From NCBI GenBank assembly GCA_000004985.1, contig GG738921.1: a DNA stretch of 64,000 nucleotides; one strand, 5' to 3'. Origin of the DNA: Naegleria gruberi. Its lineage: Eukaryota. A program made the translations under genes and the position numbers. The notes under the pieces are model-generated. The model worked only from the letters and a program-made list of their open reading frames with translations. It was not told where the DNA came from and did not search any database. Positions 1,383-62,993 of the stretch are shown piece by piece (positions within the stretch are counted from its first letter, which is position 1; every line of letters starts with the position of its first letter).

Positions 1383-3394
1383 GTTTCTTTCACTCTTTCG
1401 AATATGTCAATCATATCATTCATGCAGTGAAGTTGAATTTTTCTGAAGAATGGCAAAAGATCAGCATNTGAATCAATTAACCCTTGTAATTCATCATAAA
1501 TTTCGTCCAATTTAGGATGATTCAACTCAAGAGGTGATCCTTTCGTTAAATAGGTTTTCTGAATGTGGATTGCAATCTTCTTTCTGTTTTTTGGTTTCGT
1601 CCTGGTGATCCTTTCCACATCCTTGTAGCAGAGAATCGGTTCTGGACAATAAGACCTTCTGGCAAAGTCCAATATTATCGTAAAGGTCTTCTTATTGGCC
1701 AAACATTGTTCCAATCCAGAATCTTGATTCCAATCCACATGTTTCTTATCCGATAACCAAGCATACACTATTGGCAATGTTATACTAATCACCACATCCG
1801 AAATACTGTAAAACAGCAACACATTTCCATAAGGAATGAAAAAATCCAAAAATTTTGAAAATACTGGAATAAAACCAAACGCCACAAATATCACAATACT
1901 CAATAATTTCAATAACACCAAAACGAGTGTTTCCTTTCTCATATTCCACGTATCTCTATCTGCAATTATACACAAAATAATGAGAATTACCTCAACAACA
2001 ATGTAGAAAAATGTTTCAACTCCAACCAATATAAAAGTTGAATTGGTAATGCCACATCCTCTCTCCACAGTGAATAATCCACCATCATTAGTAAAGATGG
2101 TCGTTCCCTTTCTCAATTTCTGATCCCATTCAATTCCACCCATTATGAGAAATAGAATAACATGAAGTGAAAAGATAATGAAATAGCACAGTACAATAAA
2201 GAGGTTGCTCACGAAAAAGTTTAACACCTTTGCTCGTTTCATTTCCTTTTCAAAATCTTCCCTAGCTACAGAAAACCCATCACTGTATGTGTATGATTTG
2301 ACATCGTCATCTGCCATTGAATATTCAGTAACATCAAAATCCACCATTTTGACAGACCGATCAACGTCTTTTAAGGAGAAGTTACTAGCTGATTTCTTTT
2401 TAAGAAATGCCCTAGGGGAAGTGTTGCTACTTTCATTTCTTGTTAATGCTACTGAACTATCTATTGAAATATTCGAAACTGGACTAGTTGCTCCACTCGA
2501 TTCATTCATAACTCCATTCGACTGCACATCTGCATTATTTTGAAACGCCTCCACAATGGTTGTATTTGTCGATGTATTTGTTGTTGTATTATTACTAGAC
2601 TTGCCATTTCCTTTTTTAGTTATCTTATGAGCTAAAGATTCCAAATTCGTTGTCGATTTTCCAACCGTTCCACCAATCAACATTTTCATCTTTCTCAAAT
2701 TCAACAAGTGTAGCAATACCAATCGATAACATCTAAAAATTGCTGGAAGAATCAACGAAGGAGGCAAGACGAAATAGGTCACCGAATAAATAAAACATGG
2801 ATATTCTCTCCTACCAATTGCATATCTCAGGGAGGTCGAATAGATAATGAATGCACTTGCGAATAGTGTAAGAAACATGTAGACTAAACCTCTGGATTGA
2901 ATGTGTCGAGAGTTTCGTTTCCAATACAAGCCGAAACATGTCAGAATGAAGAGAATGGAATAGAAAAACATGATTGCAATGGAAAACGAAACTGAAAGCC
3001 AAGTTTCTGGACAAATCCCATAAATTACTGTTGCATTAGGTCCGTATCGACTAAAATCGCCCAAATTTAGAAGAATCGTATAACATCCATTGAGTGGATC
3101 TACAGTTGAATTAGTACTCGAGTTATTGAGTTGTTGTGAAGAGGATGATGAATTATCTAAATAGTTGTCAGCTTGATGTCGGGTATTATGTACTATAGAA
3201 TAGTATTCTTTCGAATCGAATATACGAATCAATGAATTCATTTGAAAATTATCCTCTTCGATTGACTGCGATGGAATTAATGTTTGATGACTGCAAATGC
3301 CGAATACTAGCAGTAGCACTGACAATTTTACAGCAATTTCCCTCAGCCGTTTGAAAGTCTGCTGCTGGCATTTGACAGGTTTAATTGCTGGCAT
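1383..3394 (-). CDS. Seven-transmembrane protein with a C-terminal RGS-like domain (AtRGS1-like 7TM-RGS architecture); 3' end runs into N-gap 1333-1382
   Basis: 688-aa ORF with seven hydrophobic ~20-25 aa helices, 3 before and 4 after a long N/S/T-rich loop. The C-terminal segment matches the RGS consensus: FARRSYCPEPILCYKDVE, IAIHIQKTYLTKGSPLELN, FFRKIQLHCMNDMIDIFERV. The ORF is truncated by the gap. Confidence 0.55.
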
Positions 3395-5228: not shown

Positions 5229-6528
5229 ATGAACTCGCTTAGCCTTAATCTTACTTTGCATTGCGGAAGAGATCTTCCAAAGGTAAGAAGAAATTTCATC
5301 ACAATTTGATTTTTTAATGTTTTAAAATTCTCTATTGATTTGTTTACCATATGATGATGTTGTTGTTATTAATTGCATTGAATTTATGATCATCATTTAG
5401 GCCGATTTGTTATCTTCGATTGATGCCTATGCTGTTGTTATTGTTCCGATTATTGGAGGACAAACCAAAACATTTAAAACAAAATGTGTGCAAGATGACC
5501 CAAATCCTGATTGGGAATTTGATTTGTTCTGTACAGATGTGGATGGAACCAGAGATTGTCTTGTTGAAATTTGGGATGAAGATACTTTGAGAAATGAAAA
5601 GGTTTGCACTGCCATACTTTCTCTTGTTGAGTTGAAATCATCAGGCACATGGCTTGGAAAGCATATAGTCTTGAAATGCTTATCTGGATTCAAACCATTC
5701 AAGGGAGCTAAAGAGTGCTGTATTATCGTATCAGCAAGTGCTCACATTTCTTTTGCTGACCTCACTCGCAAAATCACATCTCCAAACAAGTATGTGGATC
5801 CATCAAAAAAGACTATTGTCTTCCCTTTCTCACCTCATGGTGACAATACTCAACTCTATATTAAAATTTCAGCTGGAAAGAGATTCAAGATTTCGGTTTT
5901 GGACACTTCAGAATTTAGAACAAGACTTGTCATGTTTGAAGTTGCTGGAAAGAATATCACTTCTCAAATTATCAAACTCAAAGAACCAAAGAAAAAGTAT
6001 GGAATTAGCTATTATAGAAAGATTAAGATGAAGAAGGCTGACATTAAATCATGGACAAGCGTCAATCTTTTGGTTTCTAATTGTTCACTAGTTGCAACAA
6101 AGGGTGTGGAAGCTATTGTAAATGAACATGGCTGGTATGGATCCATGACCTTTGATCAAGCTAAAAAGACTTTGAAAAATATTATTGTGGATGAGGAATC
6201 TAAGAGTATTTTCATGCTGGAAAACAACTTTAGCTATATGGTGGACTTTGATTCAGACAACTTTGACCAAAAGGTTTGTCTCTCTGATGAATACTCAGCT
6301 CAAGGATATCATGTCGAGTTTGTATATGCAAAGGGAAATAGATTGAGTATCACTTCACATGGAGAACCAAGAGTTCAAACCAATACAAGAGTAGTATATA
6401 GATATTCTTCACAAGTGAAAGACTCTGAATACGGCACTCCATTCTTCCAATTCAGTGTTGAACTCTATCACAAGATACAACCACAACTTTACCAACTCAA
6501 CAGCTATATTCCTTTAAGTTTGAATTAA
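5229..6528 (+). CDS. C2 domain-containing protein; exon 1 5229..5282, intron 5283..5400 (118 nt), exon 2 5401..6528
   Basis: Exon 1 MNSLSLNLTLHCGRDLPK joins exon 2 ADLLSSIDAYAVVIVPIIGGQTKTFKTKCVQDDPNPDWEFDLF..EIWDED, a canonical C2 beta-sandwich N-terminus. Splice sites are GTAAGA..TTTAG. A long ORF continues to the stop at 6526-6528. Confidence 0.7.
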
Positions 6529-9035
6529 ACTTTATTTTGTTGATCTATGAAAAACCTGCTCTTTACACATGTATTGGAACATTCAAGCAAGATAGATTGT
6601 GTCGAAGGAGTAATCAAGGAAAGGAAATAATCATAATCACTCCTTAGTTCTTCAGATGCGAATGCAAAATTGAGAGCTGAGGATGAAACAGCCATTCTAA
6701 CAATATCCTTATCATTTCTTAATCTATTAGATGCGAAAGCTAAAGATGTTGAATCTGAACTGACTGCCAATTTGACAATTTCTTCTGTATCTCTTATTCT
6801 ATCAGATGCATACTTTAGCAGCGAACCACTATTCTTCAAAATGAGAAGCATAAACTTTGTGTCATCATTTAAATTCAATAACAATTTCTCAATAATATGG
6901 CTATCAATACTTTCATGAAACCGTAAAATAGAGGCAATAATTGACTGTGATAGATTTTGTGGATCTACATGTGCAAAAATTCTACCATGACGTCCACAAG
7001 AGGTTAAAATTGTATCCAGTAAATCTTCATCCTCATAATTGAGCATTTCAAAAGAAAAATTGTCGTATGGGTAGAAAACACCAGAATATATCTTGATGAT
7101 ATTCACGTGACTTGAATTAAAGTAGGCAAGGGATGCTTCTTGTAGCCGTTTCACAAAGGGAAGGTAAATCTCTCCCATATTGCAAAAAAAGTAATTCGTA
7201 CCCTTAACTGATTTGGAGCATGGATCCATGCAATAGAGAGCATATTCACCATAATAATCCAATAATTTTTCATTGAAATGATCTCCATAGATGGAAATAA
7301 AGTATTCTCTATCAAAAAATAGCATTGGATGAGCATATTGCAATGAGGGTTTCTTTTGTGATGGTGGCCTGAGCTGTTGATGAAGTAAGACAAGCTCGGT
7401 CTTGAATTCATCCTTTCCAAAAGAACGACAAATAATCATCTCATAAACTTTTTCCTCTCTAAATCCTTGTTTCAATGCCATATTTACACATTCCTTAATT
7501 ATTTCAATGTTTCCCCTTAATGATCTCGAAAAATTTGCAAATGAGAGAGCATTTCTGCTTGTGGCAAATCTCATAAATTCTGAATTGTTCTTTAAATTAT
7601 CAGAAGCAAACTCTATTATTCTCCAATCAATATCATACATCTGTTTGACAAATTCAAAGTCATCTCTCAATTCCAAAGTAGCACACTTAAAAAATGTATA
7701 GCTCCTTCTCACCAACAGTTCAATAAGATGATGATTAGATCTTAATTCTTTAGGAAATTGCATTGCCGTTTTTAAATCAAATGCTGGTAGAATTGATTTG
7801 ATGAATTCTGCATTCTTCCTTATTGAATCACCAAATAAATTCAATATACTTCCATTTTTAGATAAAAGTTCTTTAGCAACAGAAATGGAATTACGAATCT
7901 CTTTCGATACAAACTCAATCAATTCGTGTTCCCTCTTCAATATTGGTAGTATCAAATCTAAATTGCTCCTCAATCTCTCAGATGCATATTTGAGGGCTTT
8001 TGGGTAGAGTCTTGTGACAATTTGTAAAATCTCCTCGTCATCTACCTCAAAGGATCCATCAAAAACATTTTTCAATACACCTAAATCATCTTTGGCATAC
8101 CTGACTACTTCCTTGATGGTGAAAAATCGTTTTGGAATGAAAGAGGGTGGCAATAGCTCCTTCTCAACTACCATTCTCCAAAATTCTTCTCCTTGTGGTT
8201 GGTAGAGTTGTGAAAATTGCTTGTTGTTATCCTTGTTCATTACCAATTTGAGAGCTAGCTCTGAATATATCTCCTTTTTAATCCATTTACATACGTTCAA
8301 CTCTCCATTCTCCAGTGCAGTGCCTACTATCTCTGGGTCTGCTTTAAATTTTGAATTTGAATATCTGAGCACTGATCCGTAATATTTTACAGCTTGTAAC
8401 ACCAATTCCCTATTCGACTTGATTTCTTTTGCCTTCTTTTTCAATTCTGTATCATTTCTCAATTTTTCACACGTCACATATTTGAATATTCTTGTAGTAA
8501 ACCTAAACAATCCAACAATTCCCAACTCATCCTCATCAGAAAAATCAATTTTTCTCCTCACTTTCTGCAAATCATTTCCACACTCAGATAAATCCAAAGC
8601 AGCTTCCAATAATTCTCTATCAGATCGTAACTCTTTACTGGCAGAACGAAAGCAAACCTGATGCTCCTTCACCACACTCATCATAAACTGCCTATCACTC
8701 GTCAATTGCTGTGATGCATATCTAATCAACCACCCTCTCAACATGATCAATTTCTTCATAAATCCAAAATCATTATTTTCAATCAATGGAAATCTTTTCA
8801 CAAAACATCTCACCGAATAATTATCCTCACACTTTTTCAAACATTCAATATATTCCATCTTTTTTTTAAATAATGCTAATTGATCAATTAATCGGAATTT
8901 TCGTAATTTGTGGAAATTAATATTGTGTGAGTAGAGGTTGGAATTCTTGCATGGTTCCGAGAGGTCATCGAGTAGAATAATAACTGGTTCTCGCCATGAT
9001 GATGATGGTACCATCATTGGCATGGTTGTGTCCAT
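6525..9035 (-). CDS. DUF4116-repeat protein (at least 10 tandem repeats of the [FY]AS.ELR.D.E.V..AV unit), single exon
   Basis: 836-aa ORF. Repeats are YASQQLTSDRQFMMSVVKEH, SASKELRSDRELLEAALD, YASERLRSNLDL, FASDNLKNNSEFMRFA, YASDRIRDTEEIVKLAV, FASNRLRNDKDIVRMAV and FASEELRSDYDYF. The stop codon overlaps the stop of the convergent C2 gene by 4 bp. Confidence 0.75.
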   Translation of the reverse strand: MDTTMPMMVPSSSWREPVIILLDDLSEPCKNSNLYSHNINFHKLRKFRLIDQLALFKKKMEYIECLKKCEDNYSVRCFVKRFPLIENNDFGFMKKLIMLRGWLIRYASQQLTSDRQFMMSVVKEHQVCFRSASKELRSDRELLEAALDLSECGNDLQKVRRKIDFSDEDELGIVGLFRFTTRIFKYVTCEKLRNDTELKKKAKEIKSNRELVLQAVKYYGSVLRYSNSKFKADPEIVGTALENGELNVCKWIKKEIYSELALKLVMNKDNNKQFSQLYQPQGEEFWRMVVEKELLPPSFIPKRFFTIKEVVRYAKDDLGVLKNVFDGSFEVDDEEILQIVTRLYPKALKYASERLRSNLDLILPILKREHELIEFVSKEIRNSISVAKELLSKNGSILNLFGDSIRKNAEFIKSILPAFDLKTAMQFPKELRSNHHLIELLVRRSYTFFKCATLELRDDFEFVKQMYDIDWRIIEFASDNLKNNSEFMRFATSRNALSFANFSRSLRGNIEIIKECVNMALKQGFREEKVYEMIICRSFGKDEFKTELVLLHQQLRPPSQKKPSLQYAHPMLFFDREYFISIYGDHFNEKLLDYYGEYALYCMDPCSKSVKGTNYFFCNMGEIYLPFVKRLQEASLAYFNSSHVNIIKIYSGVFYPYDNFSFEMLNYEDEDLLDTILTSCGRHGRIFAHVDPQNLSQSIIASILRFHESIDSHIIEKLLLNLNDDTKFMLLILKNSGSLLKYASDRIRDTEEIVKLAVSSDSTSLAFASNRLRNDKDIVRMAVSSSALNFAFASEELRSDYDYFLSLITPSTQSILLECSNTCVKSRFFIDQQNKV

Positions 9036-18040: not shown

Positions 18041-18828
18041 NNNNNNNNNNNNNNNNNNNNNNNNNNNNNNNNNNNNNNNNNNNNNNNNNNNNNNNNNNNN
18101 NNNNNNNNNNNNNNNNNNNNNNNNNNNNNNNNNNNNNNNNNNNNNNNNNNNNNNNNNNNNNNNNNNNNNNNNNNNNNNNNNNNNNNNNNNNNNNNNNNNN
18201 NNNNNNNNNNNNNNNNNNNNNNNNNNNNNNNNNNNNNNNNNNNNNNNNNNNNNNNNNNNNNNNNNNNNNNNNNNNNNNNNNNNNNNNNNNNNNNNNNNNN
18301 NNNNNNNNNNNNNNNNNNNNNNNNNNNNNNNNNNNNNNNNNNNNNNNNNNNNNNNNNNNNNNNNNNNNNNNNNNNNNNNNNNNNNNNNNNNNNNNNNNNN
18401 NNNNNNNNNNNNNNNNNNNNNNNNNNNNNNNNNNNNNNNNNNNNNNNNNNNNNNNNNNNNNNNNNNNNNNNNNNNNNNNNNNNNNNNNNNNNNNNNNNNN
18501 NNNNNNNNNNNNNNNNNNNNNNNNNNNNNNNNNNNNNNNNNNNNNNNNNNNNNNNNNNNNNNNNNNNNNNNNNNNNNNNNNNNNNNNNNNNNNNNNNNNN
18601 NNNNNNNNNNNNNNNNNNNNNNNNNNNNNNNNNNNNNNNNNNNNNNNNNNNNNNNNNNNNNNNNNNNNNNNNNNNNNNNNNNNNNNNNNNNNNNNNNNNN
18701 NNNNNNNNNNNNNNNNNNNNNNNNNNNNNNNNNNNNNNNNNNNNNNNNNNNNNNNNNNNNNNNNNNNNNNNNNNNNNNNNNNNNNNNNNNNNNNNNNNNN
18801 NNNNNNNNNNNNNNNNNNNNNNNNNNNN

Positions 18829-20727: not shown

Positions 20728-23700
20728 GTGATGGACTGGTTGTTGCCAATATTTTTGACTTTTTCATTCTTTTCAAAATTGAAAAAAATGTTGAAGAGAA
20801 CAAGTACCAGCCTTCAACCCAAGAGAAAATTCGGAGGCTCTCTCCTATCAACAGTGCACAATACCAATGGCACCAACTCTAGGGCAACCAATAGAATTAA
20901 TCATCATGTTGGTTGTCTTTTTTCGAATCCTTCCGTTGGCTTTCATTCAACTATGGGAATTAATTCATCATCATCATCGAATATTAGTACAACAACAACA
21001 TCATCTAATACTACTACTACTTCGAGTAAAAGAACATCAAATAATAATAATATTCAATCGATTAATATTGGAAATATTAATTTATATTCATCAACATCCG
21101 TTCAGGAAGGTGAACAAACAATAGAGCAAGAATTGTTAATACCAAATTATTCATTATTTGGAGAGGATGTTTCACAATTGGATCAACAGAAGGACATTCT
21201 TTCACATCTCAAGTGGATGGCAATGAAGGATAAGATGAAACAGGACATGTTTTTGATTGGACATTACGGAGAATTGAAGAGACATTTGGCATTTACATAT
21301 TGCCAGTTGGCTAGAAGAAGTGTGGAATATGTTTGTATCACTAAAGATACAAGTGAACACGATTTTAAACAAAGAAGAGAAATAGAGACAGGTTCTGCTT
21401 TTTATGTGGATCAAGCTGCTGTTAGAGCTGCAAAGAATGGCTCAGTTTTGATTTTGGAAGGAATTGAAAAGGCAGATCTCAACATTTTGCCAATTTTGAA
21501 TAATCTGATGGAGAATAGAGAAATGGCCCTCGAATCTGGAACCATGCTCATCTCTCCACAACGTTATAAACAATTAATCGAAGAGGAGGGGAAAACACCA
21601 GAAGAATTAAAATTAATGAAGATTGAACCAGTTCATGAAGATTTTAGAATTATTGCTATGGGATTGCCTGTTCCATATTATGATGGAAATACTTTGGACC
21701 CTCCATTGAGATCGAGATTTAATGCTAGAGTTATTGATTTACCATCAATGGAGTCAATCTTCAGTTCCTTGGTCAATCATAGAACCAATGACCAAGTTCT
21801 TTCATTTCTCAGCAATGAACAAAAGAAGAGTCTCTTCTTGTCTCTCATTCAATTCACTCAGTCTATTGTCCATTTGGATAACATGCTGATGAATAGTAAG
21901 GATGCTGTAAATACCAATAGCAAGACTGGCTCTATTGAATTGCTCCCAAGATTTCCAATCGATAATTTGAAGAATTTAATTGAAATGTTGAATGATTACA
22001 GATCGATATTTGCTTCCTCTGTTGAGAATGTCGAAAGTCTCATCCATACCTTATATCCTTTCGAACTCTTCATGTCGAGAGAGAAGGACAAATCTGAAGA
22101 TGAAAAATTAGAGCAAAACAAAATGATTGAAATTATTAAGGAGCAATTGAAGGAGTGCTCGACCAAAATTCATGAAATAATTTCTCAAGATTTCTCTCCA
22201 GCATCATCTTCTGACCAGAAACAAGAATTAATTGGAAATCTTTTATCTCAAGCTAAGGCCACTCACTTTAAAGATATTGGATTTGTTCTGATTGAAAAAC
22301 ATAGACAAGTTCTCACTGAAATGATGAGATCTCATTTGTGTGGAAAGGATATGTGCTTGATTGGAGGCAAGGGTTCAGGAAAATCACTCATTTCTCATGC
22401 CTTTGCAAGTATGGTTGGCTACAAGGCAGTTGTCTTTCCAATGTACAAGGAAATGACTTCGAAGGATTTGCTACAAAAAAGAGGAACAGACTCGGCAGGT
22501 AATACCATTTGGAAAAATTCAGTGCTCATTGACTCAATGATTGATGGCTCGCTGTGTATCTTGGACGGCATTGATAGAATGAGTACAGATATTTTGCTTT
22601 CCATTCAAACTCTTATTCAAGATCGTGTATTGTACTTGTTCAATGGAAATCGTTATGTTTCACATGAATATTATGACAAGTTCCTTTCTCAAGGATTTAC
22701 CAAAGAAGAGTTGAGCAGCAAGGGAATTTATAGAATTCATGAGGATTTTAGAATTATTGCTATCGGATTAAATGATTCCCTCAAGTGGCTCTCATTAGAA
22801 TTATTCAACTTGTTCCATTTCCATACTGTTCCAAAACTTTCCATTGAAGAGGAGGTAGATTTGTTGAGTTCTAGAGTTGGAGCTGATGCATCTAGCCAAA
22901 ATTTGATTAATGCCCTAATCAGAATCAAGAATGATTACAATAACACAGAATTCAACCAAGACCAGCGTTTAATTTCCATGAGAGATTTGATTAGAATTGT
23001 CAAGAGAAGTATGATTTTCAAGGATGAATGCATTTTGACCGCCATAGAAAGAACTACCATGACCTACTTGTTACCAAAGCACCATTTGGAATTATTAAGA
23101 AAATTGGCTATCAAGTACAAGGTTTCACACAATCAAAACACCCCAACTGATAAGCCAGTTCATATCGAAAAGACTGACACTCACATACAAATGGATGATA
23201 TCAAAGTTCCAATTAATTTAAATGCCAATTTATTACTGGTTCCAAAGCCATACTTTGTGCAGACAGAACAACATGCCATTGTGATGAAAGCCATGCTCAA
23301 GGATCATCTCATTGGTGATCACAGTTTACTCATTGGCTATCAAGGTGTTGGTAAAAACAAGATTACAGATCAATTTTTAAATTTGCTCCAATGTGAAAGA
23401 GAGTACATGCAACTCCATCGTGACATTACCATTGCTTCTCTGACAGTTCAACCTTCTGTTGTGGATGGAGTTTTGACCTACATTGATTCTCCACTTGTTA
23501 AAGCTGTTCGCCACGGAAGAATTCTAGTTTTGGATGAAATTGATAAGGCACCTTTGGAAGTTGTTTCAATTTTAAAGTCACTAGTTGAGGATGGAAATAT
23601 GGTTCTCGGAGATGGAAGAACAATTGTAACCATGAAGGAATATCAAAAGAGAAAGCAACAAAATGATCCACATTTACACAAACTCTTACCAATCATGAAG

Positions 23701-26700
23701 GGATTTAGAATTATTGCATTGTCCAATCCTCCAACATTCCCATTCCATGGAAATTCATTCTATGATGCTAGTGGTGATATTTTCTCTAATCACTATGTTA
23801 GTAATCCAAGAGGTGACAGTGAAATCAAATTGTTGCAAAGTTATGGACCAGATGTTCCATTGTTGATTATCAAAAAGTTGAGCGGTGCCTTTGATGATTT
23901 ACGATTGGCAGTCGAAGAGGGTGTCATTCAATATCCATACTCTACAAGAGAATTGGTTCATATCGTCAAACATTTACAAGCATTCCCTAACGAGGCAACT
24001 CTTCAAGATGCACTTGCTAATGTTTTCGATTTTGACTCATTTGATAGAGAAACTCTTGAATTCTTGGCCAAAGTTTTCCAAAAACATGAAATTCCAGTAT
24101 CATTCAACAATATTGGTGAGTAGTTTCAAAAGATTTTCAAAGTGCATCAACAATATTCCTTCTTCAGAACAATTTTCTATTAGGATGGCCCAAGAAGTTC
24201 CACTTGTAAAAACCAATGAAGGAAAAAACATTTGTTTTCTAAGTTCGAGTAAGTTTTCTTTTTTCTTTCCCATACTTAACCTGAGAAAGATCCAAAATTG
24301 ACCTCAAGTTGTGAAATTCAAAACGTACCATATTTTATTAGAAATTACACAAGTAATCAAATGTATTACGATGAACCAGATTCTGGAGCTTTTGCTACAA
24401 AAAATCCAGCAGACAAATTTACAAATTTGATGGAATTTAGTGAATTGAGATATATCATTAACTTGCCATGCAACAAGGCTAAAGAAATTGTTTCTTTGGA
24501 AGATTCTGTACATGTCTTTTCAACATCAAATCCATTTGGAATGATTCATTTTGAGAGTAATGCATGTGATTCATTCAAAGTGACCGAGTTGTACTATATT
24601 CAATCTAAATTGGGTCCAAACTTGAGTTTTGTTTCTCTTAAAAACATCAAGGTAGTTGCCTTATTTTCTGCTAAACTTGCTAGACCAGACAGGTTCAAAG
24701 TCGATACTCAATCCAATTTCATAGACACTGATGTGTATGCACTGATTTATCATCCAAAACTCAATAAGAAATTTGAATTGGACTTTTCATATAGTCAATT
24801 CGTTCAAAATTCTCTGCATAAGGATGTGAGAAGTTTACCGATTCAAATTCTAACAGAATTTACCGATAGCCATTCAATGGTTGGAATCTATCAAAGTGGA
24901 TCAAGAACAATTCAATTAATTGATATGAGCTCATGGGATCCTTCCGTTCCTATCAAAAGAGGTACACCTCCACATAATTCTAAGAGTATCCACTTGCCTT
25001 TTAACATAGACACCGTTAGATGGCTCTCACCAAATACATTCCTGGTTTTAGAGTATGGTGGTGTGAGTAATTATTGGAAAGTTGTGGAATTGAATGGAAA
25101 TTCTGTGGAAATTAAGGATGTAAGCGACATGTCAACAATATCTCTCAAGGAGTATCATGTAAACTCGAGCGGAAAGGAAAATCTCATTTTTGCTCAACCA
25201 TTTATCAAGGAGAATACTCCTCAAGAAGTATATTTGAGAAAGATTGCGAGAAAGGATGATTTACTCACTATTGAAACTGATTTATCTCTTCAAAAAGGAA
25301 ATCCAAAAATTGTCAATGTACAAACCAAGTATTTGAAGAAATCCAACCAATTGGTTCTCCTACATCACGATAACGATGGTCTTCCTACATTGGATGTATT
25401 GAATTTTGAAAGGAATACTTATCGTAGAGTAACTCCCCCTGAGAGAAAGTCCAAAGTTGCACCTTCTTTCGATTCTTCCAAGTCTCGATTTGTAGACCTT
25501 TCCAATGGATACATTGCACTCTTAGATGAGGAAAACAAACTCTTCTTATTCAATTTGAATGTGGACAAGTTAGCAGAGGAAGCTATCAGCTGGAAAAAGT
25601 TCCACACTTCTGGTACCTCTTCTGACTCTCTCAAAATCGAATATATTCAACAAGACAAGGAAGCTAGCTTCCCTAAACACGGAAAAATTGATGATTTGCC
25701 TCATGTTGGAGGTAATACTTTTGCGGGTGGCTCTGGAGGGTTTGATACTGCCGGCTTAGCAGGCGCTGGAGGTCCATACCGATTATACAAGGAGGGAAAT
25801 CCAATTGTTCAAGTTTCCGATGAAGTGAAGAATAATGTTAGTAAGGAAATTTTGGAAAGAGCCAGAGCCATGGCAGAACAAGCATACAAGAAGAGATTGC
25901 AAGAAATTGACATGACAGCGCATGAAATGAACTTGTACTCTCAATATAAGAATAATGTGAGCCAGCAAATTGATCAACTGAGAAAAACTCTTGCAGGATT
26001 AAAGTGGAGAGATGAAGAGGAGGAACGTGTTTGGATTAAAAATCAAACAACAGGTGAAATTGATGATAACAAGATTGTGGAAGGAATTGTTGGAGAAAAG
26101 AACATTTACAAGAGGAGAGCCAATGAAAATGAAAAGAGAAAATCAAATCTTCCTAAAAAGAAGAAGCTACTCCACTTTGTAATGGATGTTTCTGGTTCAA
26201 TGTATCGATTCAATCATCAAGATGAAAGATTGGACAAAATGTTGGAAATTGCTGTCATTATTATGGAAAGTTTTAAAGGATTTGAGGACAGATATGAATA
26301 CAAGATTACAGGGCACTCTGGACAAACAAGTTGTTTGGAATTGGTCAAAAGAGGAGCTCCACCAAAAGATGAAAAGGAACGTCTCAAGGTTCTTCTTAAA
26401 ATGCATGCTCACTCGCAATATTGTTGGAGTGGAGATACGACAGTGCGAGCAATTAGAGATGCTTCAAAGAATGAGGAAAATGATTTTGTTTTTGTCTTTT
26501 CAGATGCCAACTTATCAAGATATGGAATTTCACATCAAGATATTGCTGTTCATTTGAAGAAGAATACCTTTATCATTTTCATTGCATCCATGTTTAATGA
26601 AGCACAAGAACTCAAGCAAGGTCTTCCATCTTCCAATAGTTTCGTATGTTTGGATACACGAGAATTATCAACAACTTTCAAGAAGATCCTATCTCAAAAC

Positions 26701-33212: not shown

Positions 33213-34830
33213 CAATATTACAATTCCATTAGAAACATGTGTTTATTCTACCACGTAAAAACTTCCTTATGGAGATGGAATCTAATTCCATTTCTTTCAT
33301 TTGCATCCCAAATGGCATTCGAAACTGAAGTTACCAATTGTTCTGGACCACAAACTAAAACACCAACATATGCATTCAATTCTCCTCTTTCTTTCATTTC
33401 CTTTTTCACTTGTTCCAAGAATTGTTTTGGATTGGCTCTTCCTTTATGAATAAATGCTGTTTGTTGTGAATTTTCTTCTTTCATTTTGGAAATGAAAATA
33501 TTTGGTTTTAAATTCTTATTTCCATTCGTTTCCAAGAGTTGAGGAAATACTTGAATCATATCAGTGGTTGGAATTGACCAACAAGTATAAACAGTCTTAT
33601 CTTGAATATTCTTTTCCAACAAGTGTGAATAAATTGAATGAACTGGTGTAATACCAATTCCACCACCAAACATGACAATTGTCTTGTATCTCAATAATGG
33701 AACTGATAATGATCCATAAGCACCTTCAACTCTACAAATTAATTCATTGGCTGATTGAGCCTTCTCTTGAGCAATTTTTGCAACTTGTTTTGACCATCCA
33801 CTTCCAAAATTCTTTACATGAACTGTAAATTCTAATTCCTTCTTTTTAATCATTCCACCATCAATTTCCTTACAACTACTAACTGTGATTGGATGGTGTT
33901 GATATTTTGAAACAGCAGGAATGTATAAGAATATGAAATGTCCCATTGAAGGATTACTGCCAAATGTCAAGAATGGTTTTCTCATTGTAATGGTTGTAAC
34001 TTGACTCTTTTCATCATATTTGATTGAATCAATTTTGGTTGGAATACCAAATCCAAATACCACTCTCAAAAATACATCAAACAGATATAATAAAATTGAT
34101 AATGCCATATAAGGTAATAAATTAATATATCCAGAACCATGAATAATTGATAAAATGACAATTAAAATGGACAAGATGACATGTGAAATTAAAAAGACCT
34201 CCCATAGCTTTCTTCTTATGACTGGGAATGTCATTAACCAAAGAATAGTCATGAAAAACCATGCAATAATTCCCAAAATTGGAAATGTTGGAGATGTCAC
34301 ATCAACTAAATATAATCCAGATGCATTATAATGAACAACCATTGCAATTCCATGAGCAGTTACAAAAAACCATTGTAAAATACCCAACCATCTGTGATAT
34401 TTAATTGCTCTATCAAATGAAATTCCAAATAAAACTTGTAAAACTGAATATCTCGTGACTGGAAATAAAATTAATCCAAAATTGAAAACACAAACAGAAG
34501 CAAATGCTTTTCCAGCTTCAGCTGATGTTGCATTCACATATCCAAATGCAAACCAAATGGCCACAAGAATCCAATAACATGAAATTACAACAGCTTCACC
34601 CAAAGTTAAATCTAAAATGGTATTAATGTAAATTCCAATAAATTTCAAATTGACTTGTTTGGTCAATCTTCTGTACAAGATCAAATCAAGGAATAGATTT
34701 GGATTCACTCTTGGTCCAATCACACTCAATAAGAATCCACCAATAACCAACAATCCACAAATGAATGCAGTAGCAATCAAATGCCATCTGTAGGAATTGG
34801 CAAGTTTGGTCAATGAGTTCATTGAGATAC
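33213..34830. repeat. Inverted-repeat arm A (~1.6 kb) of a near-identical inverted duplication; partner arm at ~43900..45499
   Basis: 3' ~520 codons of FRE copies A and B differ at only 4 residues (I/V, I/V, I/V, E/D). Identity extends ~35 bp past the stop codons, where antisense ORFs 33180..33449 and 45272..45484 share the identical string MCLFYHVKTSLWRWNLIPFLSF... Identity breaks at ..GSISMNSLTK/NSYRWHLIATAF. Confidence 0.8.
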
Positions 34831-36136
34831 TTCCATCCTTAATGTTGCCAGTAGAAGAACCACATGTGGCCAATTCACTGCCAGGAGGAGCTGCCAAGTG
34901 TGCCAAAGTAGCTGTTTGTAAAAAGTTAATCATGACATTTTTGCCTCTGTAATTGTGGACATATTCCATGGATGTAGATGTTTTGGCTATAGCCCAAGAA
35001 ATTGAAATTTGTGCATTTGTAAATAAGTGATCCAATGAATCCTTAGTATTGACCAAACGTGTCCATTTCAAATGAAGTTCATAATTTCCACTCACAGATC
35101 TTAATCCTCCATTTTTGGAAATGAAATCTTGAGATGAATCTAATGTTGGTGCTTGAAGATTACCTTGCATGTATGTGTCTAATATAACTGGGTTTCCACT
35201 TGAATCCACATATCCAAACATTGTATCAGCAGTGTCCATTCCAGAGTTGGTTCCATGATTAAATCCAATTGATGCATAGCCATAAATTCCTGTGGCAATC
35301 AATCCAAATTCAATAATTGGTACATTTGCATCATTTGGATTTGTTAAAACTTTCCAATACAATTTCAAAGAATCAGAAGTTCCATAATTAGCAACTAACT
35401 TGTAATTAGCTGTAGGATAATCAGCAGAGTTGACCCACTGAGTTAAAATACTTTGTGAATATCCAGTTTGAAGTGAACAGGTCGAATTACTACTACTAGA
35501 ACCTCCATCCGAAACTACTGGTTGACTTGGCAATACTCCATACTCACCAGTAGCATAACCAGCTGAAAGGAAATTCAAACTTGGACCTTTGCCAGTGCTG
35601 GTATGTCTAACCATTCCAGTACTGGTGGAGTGGAGTGCCCAGGAAGTTTTCATGACTGCATTGGTGAAAATGACATCGTGGGAATCTCCTGTTTTAACGA
35701 AACGTGTCCACTTGATATGTGTCTCACCTGTGGCCGAGTTGTATCCACCATTTCTTTGAAGGATATCATCGGAAGCATCACTCACTGGTGATTGTGGCTT
35801 TGCAACCATCCATGCATCCATGATGGTTACACTTTGAGAAGCACTATTATAATACCCGAAAACTTTATCAATTCATCATCATTAATAATATTAAGTTAAT
35901 ATTGCCAATAACAACTTACTGGTATCACCCTTCATTGGATCTCCATTTAAATAACCAAAGCAAAACGAGACGTAACCTCTCGTGTTTTTGGCCACAGCTC
36001 CAAATTCCAAGATTGCATCATTAATATCAGAGCTTTTTTCATTCCTTAATAATTTCCAATATAGCTTGAGATTGGAACTGAATGTGGCCACATTTCCCGA
36101 TGGATAATCAGTGGAAGATACAAACTGAGTATTCAT
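33248..36136 (-). CDS. DOMON-domain ferric reductase / NADPH-oxidase-like flavocytochrome, copy A; exon 2 33248..35862, intron 35863..35919 (57 nt), exon 1 35920..~36136 with unresolved 5' end (no signal peptide found)
   Basis: Extracellular repeats (NYKLVANYGTSDSLKLYWKVLTNPNDAN..), about 6 TM helices with conserved His (HRWLG..AHG), FAD site HPITVSS, NAD site MFGGGIGITP and CGPEQL. Exon 1 homolog ..VYSQSMNTQFVSSTDYPSGNVATFSSNLKLYWKLL..GDPMKGDT. Upstream in-frame sequence is hydrophilic (..HHHHYKILDTYNNYNTTRRIKGSERK). Confidence 0.7.
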
Positions 36137-40830: not shown

Positions 40831-41177
40831 TCCCCTTTATAATTAGATCCAAAATATTTTACATCATGATCAATTTGTTGATGATTTAATTATTTAATTA
40901 GATCATTTATAATATTTAAATATTCATATGATGATGATGATGATTGATGAGATGGAATAATAAATTTTGATCAATTCCAAGATCATTATATTAATATATT
41001 AATAATATTAAAATTACACACAAATGATCAAAGANNNNNNNNNNNNNNNNNNNNNNNNNNNNNNNNNNNNNNNNNNNNNNNNNNCCATCATCTCCATTTT
41101 CATTCTTTTCATCCTCCAATCCATCACCAAACTCCTTTTTATAAAATAAAAGGAATAATTTAAATTATAATAATTGT

Positions 41178-42484: not shown

Positions 42485-45473
42485 ATGGCGTTTTATGTTA
42501 TTCGAAACTCGCAGCTCTTTCTTCTGTCTGCACTCTTGTTGGTAACAGTTTTAGCATGTCATGACCCAGCACATGCAGCAAACGTTACCTATAGCCAAAG
42601 TATTGAAACTCAATTCGTAAATCCCTCTGATTATCCAGCAACAAACGTTGCCTCTTTCGGTTCGAATCTGAAACTTTATTGGAAACTCTTAAAAAACGAA
42701 AAGAGTTCAGATATTAATAATGCCATTCTAGAATTTGGTGCTGTTGCTCTTCGTACTAAAGGTTACCTTTCCTTTTGTTTTGGTTATTTAAGTGGAGATC
42801 CAATGAAGGGAGATACCAGTAAGTTATTTTTTTATTCGAAAGTTCTAAAGCATTAATATTCAATCTAAAGTCTTTGGTTTCTTCAATCAAGCTTCAGGTA
42901 GCATCACTGTTATGGACGCTTGGATGACTAACAAACCTGCACCACCAACCAGTGATCCCTCTGATGATATCATCCAGAAGAATGGAGGGTTTCGAACAGT
43001 TAATGGAATATCCGAAACTCACATGAAATGGACACGTTTCGTCAAGACCAACGATACTAGAGATGTTGTATTTACTAACACTGCCATGAGAATGTCCTGG
43101 GCTATTCACTCAACTAGTACTTCAATGGTGGAACATACCAGTCAAGGAAGTGGCACAACTGTTAACTTTCTTTCGGCTGGATTCGTAACTGGTGAATATG
43201 GAAAGCTTCCACAACCACCAGTGATTGCAACAGGAGGTGGAAATAACTGTTCACTTCCAACTGGATATTCACAAAGTATTTTAACTCAGTGGGTCAATTC
43301 TGCTGATTATCCTGCAGCTAATTACAAGTTAGTTGCTAATTATGGAACATCTGATTCTTTGAAATTGTATTGGAAAGTTTTGACCAATCCAAATGATGCC
43401 AATAATCCAATTATTGAATTTGGATTGTTGGCTACAGGTATTTATGGTTATGCTTCACTTGGTTTCAATCATGGAGCTAGTTCAGGAATGCAAACTGCTG
43501 ATACCATGTTTGGTTATGTAGATTCAACTGGTAAGGCAGTGATTATTGATGCTTACATGCAAGGAAATTTGCAAGCACCAGCTCCAGACACCACTCAAAA
43601 TTTTATTTCAAGCAATGGTGGTTTGAGATCTGTCAATGGCAATTATGAACTCCATTTGAAATGGACACGTTTGGTAAATACTAAGGACGCTATGGATTAT
43701 ACATTCAGCAATGCACAAATTCCAATTTCATGGGCTCTTTCCAAAACTTCTACTTCCATTACTTCTGTTCACAGTTACAGAGACAAGAATGTCATGATTA
43801 ATTTCATGCAAAATGGAGCTTCCACTGAAATGGCAGCTCCTCCTGGCAGTAGTTTGGCATGTGGATCAAGTAGTGGTTCACAAACTGGAACTGTTGTCAT
43901 TGATGAAGGTTTGAAATTAGCAAATTCCTACAGATGGCATTTGATTGCTACTGCATTCATTTGTGGATTGTTGGTCATTGGTGGATTCTTATTGAGTGTG
44001 ATTGGACCAAGAGTGAATCCAAATCTATTCCTTGATTTGATCTTGTACAGAAGATTGACAAAACAAGTCAATTTGAAATTTATTGGAATTTACATTAATA
44101 CCATTTTAGATTTAACATTGGGTGAAGCTGTTGTAATTTCATGTTATTGGATTCTTGTGGCCATTTGGTTTGCATTTGGATATGTGAATGCAACATCAGC
44201 AGAAGCTGGAAAAGCATTTGCCTCTGTTTGTGTTTTCAATTTTGGATTAATTTTATTTCCAGTCACAAGATATTCAGTTTTACAAGTTTTATTTGGAATT
44301 TCATTTGATAGAGCAATTAAATATCACAGATGGTTGGGTATTTTACAATGGTTTTTTGTAACTGCTCATGGAATTGCAATGGTTGTTCATTATAATGCAT
44401 CTGGATTATATTTAGTTGATGTGACATCTCCAACATTTCCAATTTTGGGAATTATTGCATGGTTTTTCATGACTATACTTTGGTTAATGACATTCCCAGT
44501 CATAAGAAGAAAGTTGTGGGAAGTCTTTTTAATTTCACATGTCATCTTATCCATTTTAATTGTCATTTTATCAATTATTCATGGTTCTGGATATATTAAT
44601 TTATTACCTTATATGGCATTATCAATTTTATTATATCTATTTGATGTATTTTTGAGAGTGGTATTTGGATTTGGTGTTCCAACCAAAATTGATTCAATCA
44701 AATATGATGAAAAGAGTCAAGTTACAACCATTACAATGAGAAAACCATTCCTAACATTTGGTAGTAATCCTTCAATGGGACATTTCATATTCTTATATAT
44801 TCCTGCTGTTTCAAAATATCAACACCATCCAATCACAGTTAGTAGTTGTAAGGAAATTGATGGTGGAATGATTAAAAAGAAGGAATTGGAATTTACAGTT
44901 CATGTCAAGAATTTTGGAAGTGGATGGTCAAAACAAGTTGCAAAAGTTGCTCAAGAGAAGGCTCAATCAGCCAATGAATTAATTTGTAGAGTTGAAGGTG
45001 CTTATGGATCATTATCAGTTCCATTATTGAGATACAAGACAATTGTCATGTTTGGTGGTGGAATTGGTATTACACCAGTTCATTCAATTTATTCACACTT
45101 GTTGGAAAAGAATGTTCAAGATAAGACTGTTTATACTTGTTGGTCAATTCCAACCACTGATATGATTCAAGTATTTCCTCAACTTTTGGAAACGAATGGA
45201 AATAAGAATTTGAAACCAAATATTTTCATTTCCAAAATGAAGGATGAGAATTCACAACAAACAGCATTCATTCATAAAGGAAGAGCCAATCCAAAACAAT
45301 TCTTGGAACAAGTGAAAAAGGAAATGAAAGAAAGAGGAGAATTGAATGCATATGTTGGTGTTTTAGTTTGTGGTCCAGAACAATTGGTAACTTCAGTTTC
45401 GAATGCCATTTGGGATGCAAATGAAAGAAATGGAATTAGATTCCATCTCCATAAGGAAGTTTTTACGTGGTAG
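42485..45473 (+). CDS. DOMON-domain ferric reductase / NADPH-oxidase-like flavocytochrome, copy B (intact, with signal peptide); exon 1 42485..42818, intron 42819..42897 (79 nt), exon 2 42898..45473
   Basis: Signal peptide MAFYVIRNSQLFLLSALLLVTVLACHDPAHA. Duplicated extracellular DOMON-like modules. TM region with His pairs, HPITVSS (FAD), GGGIGITP and CGPEQL (NAD). The GTAAGT..TTCAG junction is phase-1 consistent, giving ..GDTS|SITVMDAWM... Confidence 0.85.
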
Positions 45474-50593: not shown

Positions 50594-50867
50594 NNNNNNN
50601 NNNNNNNNNNNNNNNNNNNNNNNNNNNNNNNNNNNNNNNNNNNNNNNNNNNNNNNNNNNNNNNNNNNNNNNNNNNNNNNNNNNNNNNNNNNNNNNNNNNN
50701 NNNNNNNNNNNNNNNNNNNNNNNNNNNNNNNNNNNNNNNNNNNNNNNNNNNNNNNNNNNNNNNNNNNNNNNNNNNNNNNNNNNNNNNNNNNNNNNNNNNN
50801 NNNNNNNNNNNNNNNNNNNNNNNNNNNNNNNNNNNNNNNNNNNNNNNNNNNNNNNNNNNNNNNNNNN

Positions 50868-51119: not shown

Positions 51120-54100
51120 ATGTCAACAACATTCGACCAAGTCTTCCATGCAGTTTCGGAAGGAAACATTGAATTTTTGAGACACATTGATTTACGTCCA
51201 TTTATTAATCATGAACAAGATGATCCCGACGATGAAGGTATTGTTACATTATTATGTACAGCGTGCGGCAGAGGACATTTGAAAATTGTAGAATTATTAT
51301 TGAATGTTGATGGAGTTGATGTAAACAAATGTGTATGTTTTCATAGATTAATTATTTGATGTTGAATGTAAATCTTTGAAATTTATATATGAAAATAGGG
51401 ACCGTTGTTTTTTGCTTGCCAAAACGGATACGTAGAAATTGTAAAATTATTGTTGAGTGTTGATGGAATTGATGTTAATCAAATTGTATGTAATAATGGA
51501 ATGAATAATGGAATGGTATATTTATATTAATGATTTTTATGATTATCTATAATAGAGAGTGTTACGTGAAGCATGTGAAAAAGGCTATTTTGAAATTGTA
51601 AAATTATTATTGGACTTTGATGGAATTAATGTTGACGCTTATGTATGTAGCAAATATTAATATTAAGAAGTTTAATATTAATTCTTCTTATTAGAAAGCA
51701 TTGCATGGAGCATGTTATGGAGGGAATTTTAATATTGTAAAATTATTACTTGCCAAGAATGCTCGAATAGGAAAAGAAGAAAGAAAAGAATATGATAAAA
51801 AAATCAAACCGAAAGTAAGTTTAGTTTTCAGATAAGTGTCAAATATAGTCCAATATTAGTTCAATCTCGAATATACTTTGGATGAATTAAAGGATAAAAT
51901 CTCACAATTACGAATTCAACATTGGAGAAATGTGANNNNNNNNNNNNNNNNNNNNNNNNNNNNNNNNNNNNNNNNNNNNNNNNNNNNNNNNNNNNNNNNN
52001 NNNNNNNNNNNNNNNNNNNNNNNNNNNNNNNNNNNNNNNNNNNNNNNNNNNNNNNNNNNNNNNNNNNNNNNNNNNNNNNNNNNNNNNNNNNNNNNNNNNN
52101 NNNNNNNNNNNNNNNNNNNNNNNNNNNNNNNNNNNNNNNNNNNNNNNNNNNNNNNNNNNNNNNNNNNNNNNNNNNNNNNNNNNNNNNNNNNNNNNNNNNN
52201 NNNNNNNNNNNNNNNNNNNNNNNNNNNNNNNNNATAATGATAAGAGAGAGTTGATAAATGAAATTGAAAGAGTTGAAAATAGTTTGAGAGAACATGAAGT
52301 TAATTTTGAATGTTTCCAAAATGTTAACAAATTGAAATTGAAAAAGAAAGATTTGTTCAAGTCACTAGCTGAAATCAAAGACAAAATAGAAGATATTGAA
52401 TATGCTAAAGACACACTTATATTCGAAATTAAAACTCAAAAAAGAAACAAGATTGGTAAAGTTGAGGAAATTGAAAGATTGGAGAAGAAACTTTCTGACA
52501 TGATTCAGGAATTATCAAACATGCACGAAAGAAAATCAGAAATCCAAAACGACTTGATGGAGCTGATTCCTAAATTTCCTGAAATTATTATTGAAATGGA
52601 ACAACCATTAGCAATAGATGGTGTTGTCATTTCATCATCAATGACACCAAAAGAAAAATTCAGAGTATTTGCACTTCAAAACTCTATTTTACTTTTAAAT
52701 ACTCAATTTTCAAATTATACTAACATTCAAACACTTCACACTGGATTATCAGTTGTTTACAAAGCAAGCAAATCTAATAGTCAGGTGGTTATTCTCAAAG
52801 AAATTTCTCTTTCAGAAAATAATTGTGAAACAGTAATGAATGAAATTATGAATTTGGTTATACTCAAAGGTCATCCTAGAATTATCAAATTGAATGGTGT
52901 ATTTATTGAATCACAATTTAATAAGGTTTATATTGAAACACCATATTATTCAAATGGAAATTTACTGGAGTATATCAACAAGATTAGAAATCATCATGAT
53001 TTACCAACTTTGAAGAACATGTTGAGAAGTTTATTTAGAAAAATGACAGAAACACTTCAATTTATCCATTCCAAAGATATTCTGCACAGAGATTTAAAAC
53101 CTCAAAATATTTTGGTGAATGAAAATGGAGAACCAATTATTGCAGATTTTGGATCAAGTAAGAAACTAATTGCTCAATTGACAAATAATACAATGGGAGT
53201 TGGAACATTGAAATATATGGCACCAGAAGTGAAAAGACAAGAAGAATCACCAAGTGAAAAATCAGACATTTGGTCATTGGGTGTTTCATTGTATGAATGT
53301 TGGCAATTGATTCAACAAATAAGTATGATGAATAATGCAACAGTTGAAATATTGAACTTTGACTCGAAGGGTAAGGTAGTTTTACCTACCAGTACTTTGA
53401 ATGATGAAATTGATATAACATTGATGAAAATGTTGAGTCACATGTTCAATAGCAATCCAGAAGACAGACCAAGTTCATTAACACTACTGACAGATTCAGA
53501 TTATTTCACAAATGAAAATCCTACAACAGATATACTTTCTAAATCTAATCAAAAAGAATTGGAAGGTTCTGAAAAGATATCACTTTGGCAAGCAAGATTA
53601 AAGAAGATGAAACAATTTTTGCCTGAAAGCACAGAAGGAGAAATCAAGGTTGACATCTATAGACACCGTCTATTGGAAGATATTGCCTCTATATATAAGG
53701 ATTTGATACCAATAGGGTATTCAGTGATATTTTACAAAACATTTGTGAAATATAAGGGAGAGACTGGAATAGACGCAGGAGGATTATCCAATGAGATGTA
53801 TTCTAAATATATTGAAGCCATACTGGAAAGCAAACATTTTCAAAATAGCGAAAGCTCACCAAATGAAAATTTCATTTTAACTGATGAACCACTCACAGAT
53901 GAATCTAAAAATCAATTGAGAACACTTGGGTTGTTATTGAAAAAGTTATTAATTGACTGTGACGACAAGACAGTTTATCTTCCATTGAATAGCTTTATAT
54001 TTTATTATTTATTGAATGGAAATGCTCTCAACAAAGAAACACTCCAATTTAATGCTATATCCCTTTTACTATCAAAATTCTTGAGAGAATATGATTTTGA

Positions 54101-54773
54101 ATTGGATAATCAAATATTTAGTGTGAAAAAATGTAAAAATGATGAAGAATTACAATCAATTACAATGGAAGAAACATTTATTGATGTTTTATCAAAGAGT
54201 GAGAAACCATTAATAATGGAAAATGTTCAATTATTCATCATTTCACAATTATATTCATATTTTTATTCTGATTTAAAGATTGAAAAATTGAAATTAATCA
54301 AACAAGGATTTGACTGGTTTAATTTGACTAAATTCAAACAAAGCTCAAAATTACCACCCAAGTTGAAAGAATTCCTAGACCTCCAAGGATCAAATTTTGA
54401 TGAGAAGTGTTTGAGTGTGAATGAATTGAAAATTCTCCTCTCAGGTCAATCATATATTGATGCTGATTTATTATTGAATGAAATAGACATGACCAGAATT
54501 TCACCAATAATGCAAGATCACTTCACTAAATGTATTAGAAAATTAACAAAAAGTCAATTGAGACAATTACTTGTTTGGATGACTTCACTTTCAAGCATTC
54601 CAATCAGAGGTTTTTCAAGAAAGATCTCAATTCGTGAATATAACAGATTTGAATCTCATACCTGTTCATTTGTATTTGATATTCCATCTCAAATAACCAA
54701 TTATGAACAATTTGAAACTCAATTCATGAATTGTTTGAGATTGTCATCTGTTGCAACTATGGAAGATCAATAG
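51120..54773 (+). CDS. Ankyrin-repeat / coiled-coil / protein kinase / HECT ubiquitin-ligase multidomain protein (copy A); exons 51120..51332, 51399..51485, 51556..51642, 51695..51814, 51860..(gap 51936-52233)..54773; introns 66, 70, 52, 45 nt
   Basis: Four ANK repeats, one per exon (..GPLFFACQNGYVEIVKLLLSVDGIDVNQI, RVLREACEKGYFEIVKLLLDFDGINVDAY, KALHGACYGGNFNIVKLLLAKNA). A coiled-coil region follows. The kinase domain has VVILKEI (K), HRDLKPQNILV, ADFGSSK, GTLKYMAPE and DIWSLGVSLYE. The HECT domain has GIDAGGLSNEMY and ..FESHTCSFVFDIPSQITNYEQFETQFMNCL, including the catalytic Cys. Confidence 0.8.
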
Positions 54774-62943: not shown

Positions 62944-62993
62944 NNNNNNNNNNNNNNNNNNNNNNNNNNNNNNNNNNNNNNNNNNNNNNNNNN

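Follow-up and report, generated by a model that had tools for sequence, protein, structure and literature searches.

In this study, a stretch of 64,000 nucleotides from Naegleria gruberi (contig GG738921.1, assembly GCA_000004985.1; hereafter the window) was analysed, and the locus at 1383..3394 on the minus strand was identified as a real gene for a seven-helix, receptor-shaped membrane protein with a regulator of G-protein signalling (RGS) domain. It belongs to a family of paralogous seven-transmembrane (7TM) RGS proteins that is found in Naegleria and Willaertia. The protein is probably a receptor-regulated GTPase-activating protein (GAP) for Gα subunits, of which the public gene model, NAEGRDRAFT_59832, has been truncated by a false intron.

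Gene structure and correction of the public model

An unbroken open reading frame (ORF) of 670 codons and 2 further bases was found on the minus strand at 3394..1383, which begins with an ATG at 3392-3394, has its last complete codon ending at base 1385 and then enters a run of N at 1333-1382. It represents a partial, intron-free coding sequence of the 7TM-RGS protein with its 3' end inside this assembly gap. Plus-strand ORFs over the same region were at most 112 codons long, and the G+C content around the locus was approximately 34-36%. Codon 643 (1466..1468) is ambiguous, reading NAT with a single n at 1468, and was translated as X; residue N, D, H or Y is possible at this position, which lies in a variable loop of the RGS domain. 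The aligned residue is H in P0002, a metagenomic protein (gene 454-2133 on contig MLSBCLC_10157081 of sample 3300002220) that is the nearest relative with a complete C-terminus. The gap of 50 N conceals the final 25 or so codons and the stop. A preliminary description of this DNA had already held that the gap cuts the 3' end of the gene, and this was borne out, as the ORF runs into the gap and the C-terminal tails of P0002 and of P0151 from Naegleria lovaniensis continue for 23 and 27 residues, respectively, past the last aligned position. From these tails, the hidden C-terminus is expected to comprise about 25 codons resembling QNKEIREMVEEW, followed by a stop. The DNA past the gap (1228-1332), translated in three frames, had no likeness to the tails of P0002 and P0151, and a stop was met after 0-13 codons in each frame.

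Residues 1-468 of the ORF were 100% identical to NAEGRDRAFT_59832, a 474-residue N. gruberi 'hypothetical protein' with a domain-free record, and joining 3394..1991 to 1805..1785 yielded exactly this protein. The segment excluded by the join, 185 nt at 1806..1990 on the minus strand, encodes the family-invariant residues D481, T482, W483 and E488. Its removal shifts the frame, so that the conserved P521 and P541 and the RGS domain are lost as well, and the public protein ends within helix 5, without most of that helix, helices 6-7 and the RGS domain. The intron was judged to be spurious because the removed and the downstream sequence aligns to every relative and carries family-invariant residues; on these alignments, it is almost certainly a prediction artefact, and the misprediction was probably triggered by the assembly gap, which conceals the true stop.

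If the public annotation were correct, a protein of 474 residues with four full transmembrane helices and part of a fifth would be made, and the RGS-like sequence farther on would either not be translated or be a remnant in decay. Such a reading can draw on the consensus ends of the segment (GT..AG, GTAATT...TTTTACAG) and on the exact reproduction of the database protein by the join. However, when the putative intron is read through, the frame remains open for 202 more codons, up to the gap, whereas the spliced product terminates six codons past the frame shift. Moreover, the stretch beyond the start of the putative intron aligns gap-free to the relatives and holds the invariant D481, T482, W483, E488, P521, P541, S581, E585, N625 and R667, and none of the relatives ends where the public model ends. 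The annotated protein is therefore scarcely credible, and the continuous 670-codon ORF is, as judged from the sequence, the better gene model. As NAEGRDRAFT_59832 is devoid of the RGS domain, this gene would escape counts of N. gruberi RGS or 7TM-RGS genes that rest on domain detection. The truncation of the public model of this copy is the single new point, and its value lies mainly in curation; the correction adds one gene to the large N. gruberi repertoire, in which De Mendoza et al. (2014) reported 229 RGS-domain proteins (PMC3971589), and leaves the concept unchanged.

RGS domain

The C-terminal domain (residues ~559-670; 1385..1720, minus strand; its end in the gap) was recognised with Pfam, a family profile and Foldseek. 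An RGS match at E <= 0.001 was obtained for 24 of the 25 full-length family members, with a best value of 6.9e-12, and the sole failure was the window protein itself. Taken alone, the window sequence scored 17.5 bits on the Pfam RGS family (PF00615) as a whole ORF (E 0.0056) and 21.6 bits as the domain only, compared with a gathering score of 23.9 bits; the scored domain is truncated by the gap and carries one X. P0002 scored 25.0 bits as a whole and 29.8 bits as the domain, above the cut-off. The profile check that had been suggested for the RGS assignment thus gave a divided answer, borderline for the window sequence by itself and positive for P0002 and for the family.

A profile of nine family members matched RGS10 chain 2ihb_B, from the entry of the RGS10-Gαi3 complex, over the full domain (profile 307-429, chain 21-138) at E 1.4e-7, and sixteen further RGS chains matched at E <= 0.01. 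The chains matched by this profile included RGS10, RGS12, RGS2, RGS5, RGS16, RGS17 and RGS4 (E 1.4e-7 to 6.5e-3), and also RGS22, RGS3 and RGS18. The family profile was needed because a single-sequence search with the P0002 RGS domain against the sequences of the Protein Data Bank (PDB) gave only marginal RGS10 matches (E 0.07-0.1); a transaldolase match in the same search was attributed to chance. Weak Pfam matches to EST1, Draxin, the E+ motif and QcrA_N were likewise rejected, as they were below the cut-offs, lay in low-complexity or unrelated regions and were absent from the relatives.

An AlphaFold2 model, built from a 10-sequence alignment, was consistent with this assignment. Foldseek superposed the C-terminus of the model on RGS1, RGS16, RGS2 and RGS3 with target-normalised TM-scores of 0.68-0.73 (0.62-0.73 when RGS8 was included) and a probability of 1.00. 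Helices were modelled at residues 560-566, 568-580, 585-598, 601-615, 621-625, 629-641 and 647-669, with predicted local distance difference test (pLDDT) values of 58-81 per 10-residue block. The last helix or helices of the domain are gone with the gap, and the all-helical RGS fold is otherwise present in the model.

Both RGS blocks quoted in the preliminary description were found, YLTKGSPLELN at residues 615-625 (1520-1552) and FFRKIQLHCMNDMIDIF at residues 649-665 (1400-1450), and both proved informative. The final asparagine of the former, N625 (1520-1522), aligns with N128 of RGS4. In FFRKIQLHCMNDMIDIFER, D663 (1406-1408) and R667 (1394-1396) are matched in the family-profile alignment to the two charged residues, D and R, of 'DSYSR' in RGS10, and, upstream, E585 (1640-1642) in RRSYCPEP aligns with E87 of RGS4. 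These four residues, all on the minus strand, are predicted Gα contacts by alignment to RGS4 and RGS10. In the RGS4-Giα1 structure, RGS4 E87, N88, N128, D163 and R167 are contacts of the Gα switches; the RGS4 sequence used for numbering has S85, E87, N88, N128, D163 and R167 at these places, and the D and R of 'DSYSR' in RGS10 are equivalent to RGS4 D163 and R167. Across 25 sequences with a mean column identity of 25%, E585, N625 and R667 were invariant and D663 was at least 90% conserved. Such near-invariance of the E87, N128, D163 and R167 counterparts indicates that the canonical Gα interface is under selection. Positions invariant in the family comprised R168, P199, C200, G446, C447, E488, P541, L565, S581, E585, N625 and R667, a list that could guide mutagenesis in the pathogenic Naegleria fowleri, whose 7TM-RGS proteins have come under discussion as potential drug targets. 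Taken together, the matches of 24 of the 25 members, the match of the family profile to RGS10, the superposition of the model and the retention of the contact residues make the RGS assignment secure despite the low score of the window sequence itself.

Seven-helix part and topology

Hydropathy analysis (Kyte-Doolittle, 19-residue window, threshold 1.6) revealed seven hydrophobic segments at residues 131-159, 169-189, 201-231, 388-424, 452-483, 485-521 and 524-545. Seven long helices, at 132-161, 170-193, 200-241, 375-429, 451-478, 483-519 and 523-551, were also present in the AlphaFold2 model, in which the helices and the C-terminal domain had pLDDT values of 70-90, compared with values under 50 for residues 1-18, 27-102 and 241-376. 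The preliminary description had named a seven-helix protein followed directly by an RGS domain, with a helix count below seven as the finding that would speak against it; the two counts of seven and the single ORF continuing into the RGS domain agree with that architecture.

The N-terminus of the window protein carries a hydrophobic segment (residues ~17-40; 3275..3346, minus strand) that resembles a signal peptide or signal anchor, with a hydropathy peak and a model helix at residues 9-34. This segment is not conserved in the family, most relatives beginning downstream of it, and is probably a signal peptide or anchor peculiar to this copy. It is followed by a predicted extracellular region (residues ~41-130; 3005..3274, minus strand), recognised by its sequons and conserved cysteines. 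Five overlapping N-x-S/T sequons (N81, N90, N91, N95 and N120) lie in this region, and C104 (3083-3085), C128 (3011-3013; motif GxCP[DE]T) and P129 were invariant in the 10-sequence alignment.

The first three transmembrane helices (residues 131-241; 2672..3004, minus strand) were assigned by hydropathy and by the model with pLDDT of 80-90. R168 in this stretch is invariant, as is the pair P199-C200 (C200 at 2795-2797), which belongs to the motif LRxxIGR[KR]xxPC and is located at the outer end of helix 3. Helices 4-7 (residues 375-551; 1742..2272, minus strand) contain the invariant G446-C447 in the outer loop between helices 4 and 5 (C447 at 2054-2056), E488, P521 and P541, and a conserved DRDTW motif (1946-1960) follows helix 5. 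The helical bundle of the model could be superposed on solved 7TM domains of G-protein-coupled receptors (GPCRs), and the 7TM core, as modelled, has the GPCR fold. The 7TM domains of class C GPCRs (mGlu, GABA-B, GPR156, GPR158 and GPRC5D) were among the closest known systems to the bundle; class C was only slightly ahead of class A, and the class was left unassigned. In a Pfam scan of the window protein and its relatives, no 7TM or GPCR family matched the 7TM part. Furthermore, C200 and C447 lie where GPCRs classically have a disulfide. The odd number of helices, the N-terminal sequons, the conserved cysteine pair in predicted outer loops and the short, basic loops that follow helices 1 and 5 (RNSRHIQSR and DRDTWNMRK) all fit an N-terminus outside and a C-terminus inside, from which we infer a topology that would place the RGS domain in the cytoplasm. 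However, three basic residues are also present in the predicted first outer loop.

A long loop lies between helices 3 and 4 (residues ~242-374; 2273..2671, minus strand), which is predicted to be cytoplasmic and, from its composition and pLDDT, disordered. The preliminary description had drawn attention to its length and its richness in N, S and T, and both were confirmed: N, S and T make up 35% of residues ~232-388 compared with 22% of the whole protein, and approximately 135 residues (pLDDT below 50 at 241-376) were modelled as disordered. A variable insert at this place, differing in length and sequence, was present in 25/25 aligned family sequences, and the loop is therefore a family trait and not an oddity of one gene. 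Near its end, just before helix 4, residues 351-367 form an acidic motif, VDFDVT (2327-2344) ... DDDVKS (2294-2311) on the minus strand, which is partly conserved amid an otherwise unconserved loop; the family pattern is D-x-D-V-x-[ST]-W, and D364 is at least 90% conserved. This motif could be a regulatory or sorting signal.

Protein family

The window protein aligned end to end with P0002 (56-57% identity), with P0151 of N. lovaniensis (49%) and with 22 other full-length relatives. An earlier word-indexed homologue search had given two proteins only, and the family was revealed by an exhaustive search with a two-sequence profile against 1.84 billion cluster representatives, in which 264 proteins passed a threshold of E <= 1e-3 and 87 passed E <= 1e-30. 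Many of the proteins found were full length over the 7TM part and the RGS domain. Named members come from N. gruberi (e.g. NAEGRDRAFT_59680 and NAEGRDRAFT_62211), N. lovaniensis, N. fowleri and Willaertia magna, and the UniRef name of family members is 'RGS domain-containing protein'. The closest named relative is N. lovaniensis C9374_010381, with 49% identity in the 10-sequence alignment. N. fowleri FDP41_012977 (P0017) belongs to the same sequence family, with 470 bits against the family profile. The source of P0002 is presumably an unsequenced Naegleria-like amoeba. When the family hidden Markov model was run against all ORFs of at least 60 codons in the window, no paralogue was found besides 3394..1383. 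The 10-kb environmental contig of P0002 was seen to carry other eukaryote-like genes as well, encoding a protein kinase and a CCG-domain protein.

Comparison with known 7TM-RGS proteins

The preliminary description had regarded 7TM-RGS proteins as well known from plants and rarely described elsewhere. This statement fails because such proteins have been reported in Naegleria, other bikonts, fungi and Trichomonas. In particular, the 7TM-RGS architecture is on record for many bikonts and also for chytrid fungi, filastereans and ichthyosporeans (PMC3971589), it has been described in Trichomonas (PMC3865004), and Bosch, Jeck and Siderovski (J Biol Chem 2022) reported 28 expressed 7TM-RGS proteins in N. 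fowleri (PMC9283941). The present locus is a further member of this known, large and expanded Naegleria class, and the dictyostelid comparison that had been proposed for it points to the wrong lineage. In N. fowleri, the RGS domains of Nf 7TM RGS2, 3 and 4 use the canonical interface to act as GAPs on Nf Gα2, 3, 5 and 7, these domains bind transition-state Gα with sub-micromolar to micromolar affinity, and a G-to-S mutation in switch I of Gα abolishes the GAP effect (PMC9283941). For N. gruberi, 44 Gα subunits have been reported (PMC8584482).

Nf 7TM RGS1-4 are from the same genus and share with the window protein the order of seven helices and a C-terminal RGS domain, as well as the canonical residues of the Gα/RGS interface. 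However, their ectodomains are large and contain EGF-like repeats, lectin domains and GPS motifs (PMC9283941), whereas the window protein has a short N-terminus of approximately 100 residues with cysteines and sequons, together with an extended disordered loop joining helices 3 and 4.

With AtRGS1, the window protein shares the domain order and the presumed logic of a receptor-like protein in the membrane, in which a cytoplasmic RGS domain holds Gα in the GDP form. The glutamate counterpart of RGS4 E87 is conserved, and this is the site of the AtRGS1 loss-of-function mutation E320K. By contrast, kinship of the 7TM sequences is not evident, no Pfam 7TM family matching the window protein. Regulation of AtRGS1, which responds to sugar, works by endocytosis driven by a phosphorylation cluster in the C-terminal tail, whereas the conspicuous variable region of the window protein is the loop between helices 3 and 4, its C-terminal tail lying in the gap. 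Moreover, plants have about one copy, in contrast to the many paralogues per genome in the Naegleria family. The label 'AtRGS1-like' in the preliminary description is valid for the order of 7TM part and RGS domain only, and the relation is best read as one of the same architecture, not of a plant-type gene.

The animal RGS proteins of R4/R12 type (RGS10, RGS1, RGS16, RGS2 and RGS4) gave the best sequence and fold matches and have the equivalents of E87, N128, D163 and R167 in common with the Naegleria family. Unlike the latter, whose RGS domain is tethered to the membrane, they are small soluble proteins; identity to them is 12-22%, the N88 equivalent is not kept in the Naegleria family, and the Naegleria domain has a variable insert between the N625 loop and the last helices.

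Proposed function and alternative explanations

The reading that we prefer, a receptor-regulated GAP of the Naegleria/Willaertia 7TM-RGS family, suggests the following mode of action. The RGS domain would sit at the inner face of the plasma membrane, where, by analogy with N. fowleri, it may engage the switch regions of transition-state Gα, with one or more of the many N. gruberi subunits as partners, and speed GTP hydrolysis. An outside cue sensed by the 7TM part or the ectodomain might then alter how active the GAP is or how well it reaches Gα, perhaps by way of the cytoplasmic loop. The receptor would in this way set the level of Gα-GTP through inactivation rather than nucleotide exchange, as has been proposed for AtRGS1 and N. 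fowleri.

Several observations weigh against this proposal. The score of the window sequence alone is under the PF00615 cut-off, and the end of the domain is in the gap. The Foldseek E-values of the RGS matches were weak (0.09-1), a consequence of the length and partial disorder of the query. The quality of the model was moderate, with a mean pLDDT of 59.9 and a predicted template-modelling score of 0.53 from an alignment of just 10 sequences. The position of RGS4 N88, a switch-I contact, is P586 in the window protein and is occupied by A, S, N, D, T or P across the family. Furthermore, the biochemically tested N. fowleri proteins may belong to another 7TM subfamily than the window protein.

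Some of these observations would fit an RGS-homology domain that lacks GAP activity and serves as a scaffold or a Gα-effector module, as in GRKs, axin, sorting nexins and RhoGEFs. The low score on the canonical RGS profile and the variable N88 position are in keeping with this idea, and so are the secondary matches to the Pfam RGS-like family PF09128 (15.8-24.8 bits; P0151 has PF09128 among its precomputed matches) and the presence of SNX25, axin, PDZ-RhoGEF and GRK1 among the Foldseek matches; in addition, GAP activity has been reported as lost from some RGS domains (De Mendoza et al., PMC3971589). However, the E87, N128, D163 and R167 equivalents are invariant or nearly so in a family of low overall identity, the best sequence and fold matches are to the GAP-active R4/R12-type RGS10, RGS1, RGS16 and RGS2, and even the RGS-RhoGEF domain of N. 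fowleri has a canonical interface and GAP activity (PMC9283941). A domain devoid of GAP activity is thus considered unlikely. It is more improbable still that the 7TM part is a conventional exchange-promoting GPCR with a tethered RGS terminator, which would activate and then quench the same G protein and so produce a self-limiting pulse. The GPCR fold of the modelled bundle may be compatible with such a dual function, but neither a Pfam GPCR family nor a G-protein-coupling motif was recognised in the 7TM part, and the plant and Trichomonas precedents are GAP-only (PMC9283941, PMC3865004).

Within the preferred reading of a receptor-regulated GAP, the origin of the architecture deserves a separate, tentative proposal, which we consider possible though rather doubtful. 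The family may have arisen by an independent fusion of a GPCR fold with an RGS domain and not from the 7TM part of plant AtRGS1, with a short cysteine-containing ectodomain, a bundle nearest to class C and regulation through the loop between helices 3 and 4 with its acidic motif instead of the C-terminal tail. If this were true, the receptor-GAP design would have evolved separately.

Other features of the window

The 3' part of an ABC-transporter gene, with a Walker motif and the signature LSGGQKQR, lies at 1-1227 on the plus strand, apparently with a short intron at ~568-612, which marks the window as eukaryotic DNA. This gene and the 7TM-RGS gene are convergent, with approximately 100 bp and the gap between their 3' ends. 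Further assembly gaps are located at 18041-18828, 41035-41084, 50594-50867, 51936-52233, 57950-62085 (4.1 kb) and 62944-62993; long 'ORFs' at 57.9-62.1 kb and 18.0-18.9 kb were rejected, as they are runs of N and not genes. An 836-codon ORF at 6525-9035 (minus strand) contains seven DUF4116 repeats (E 8.1e-60). At 20728-24123 (plus strand), a 1131-codon ORF encodes three dynein-related AAA_5 domains (E 1.1e-83) and probably represents a portion of a longer gene that is midasin-like or dynein-like. Two paralogues, at 33248-35821 (minus strand) and 42912-45473 (plus strand), are divergently transcribed approximately 7 kb apart, and both have the order DOMON, ferric-reductase transmembrane, FAD-binding and NAD-binding domain (NOX/ferric-reductase-like). 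Finally, an 840-codon ORF at 52251-54773 (plus strand) encodes a protein kinase domain (residues 166-413, E 1.1e-41) and, C-terminal to it, a HECT ubiquitin-ligase domain (residues 537-823, E 1e-9), and this kinase-HECT fusion is an unusual combination.

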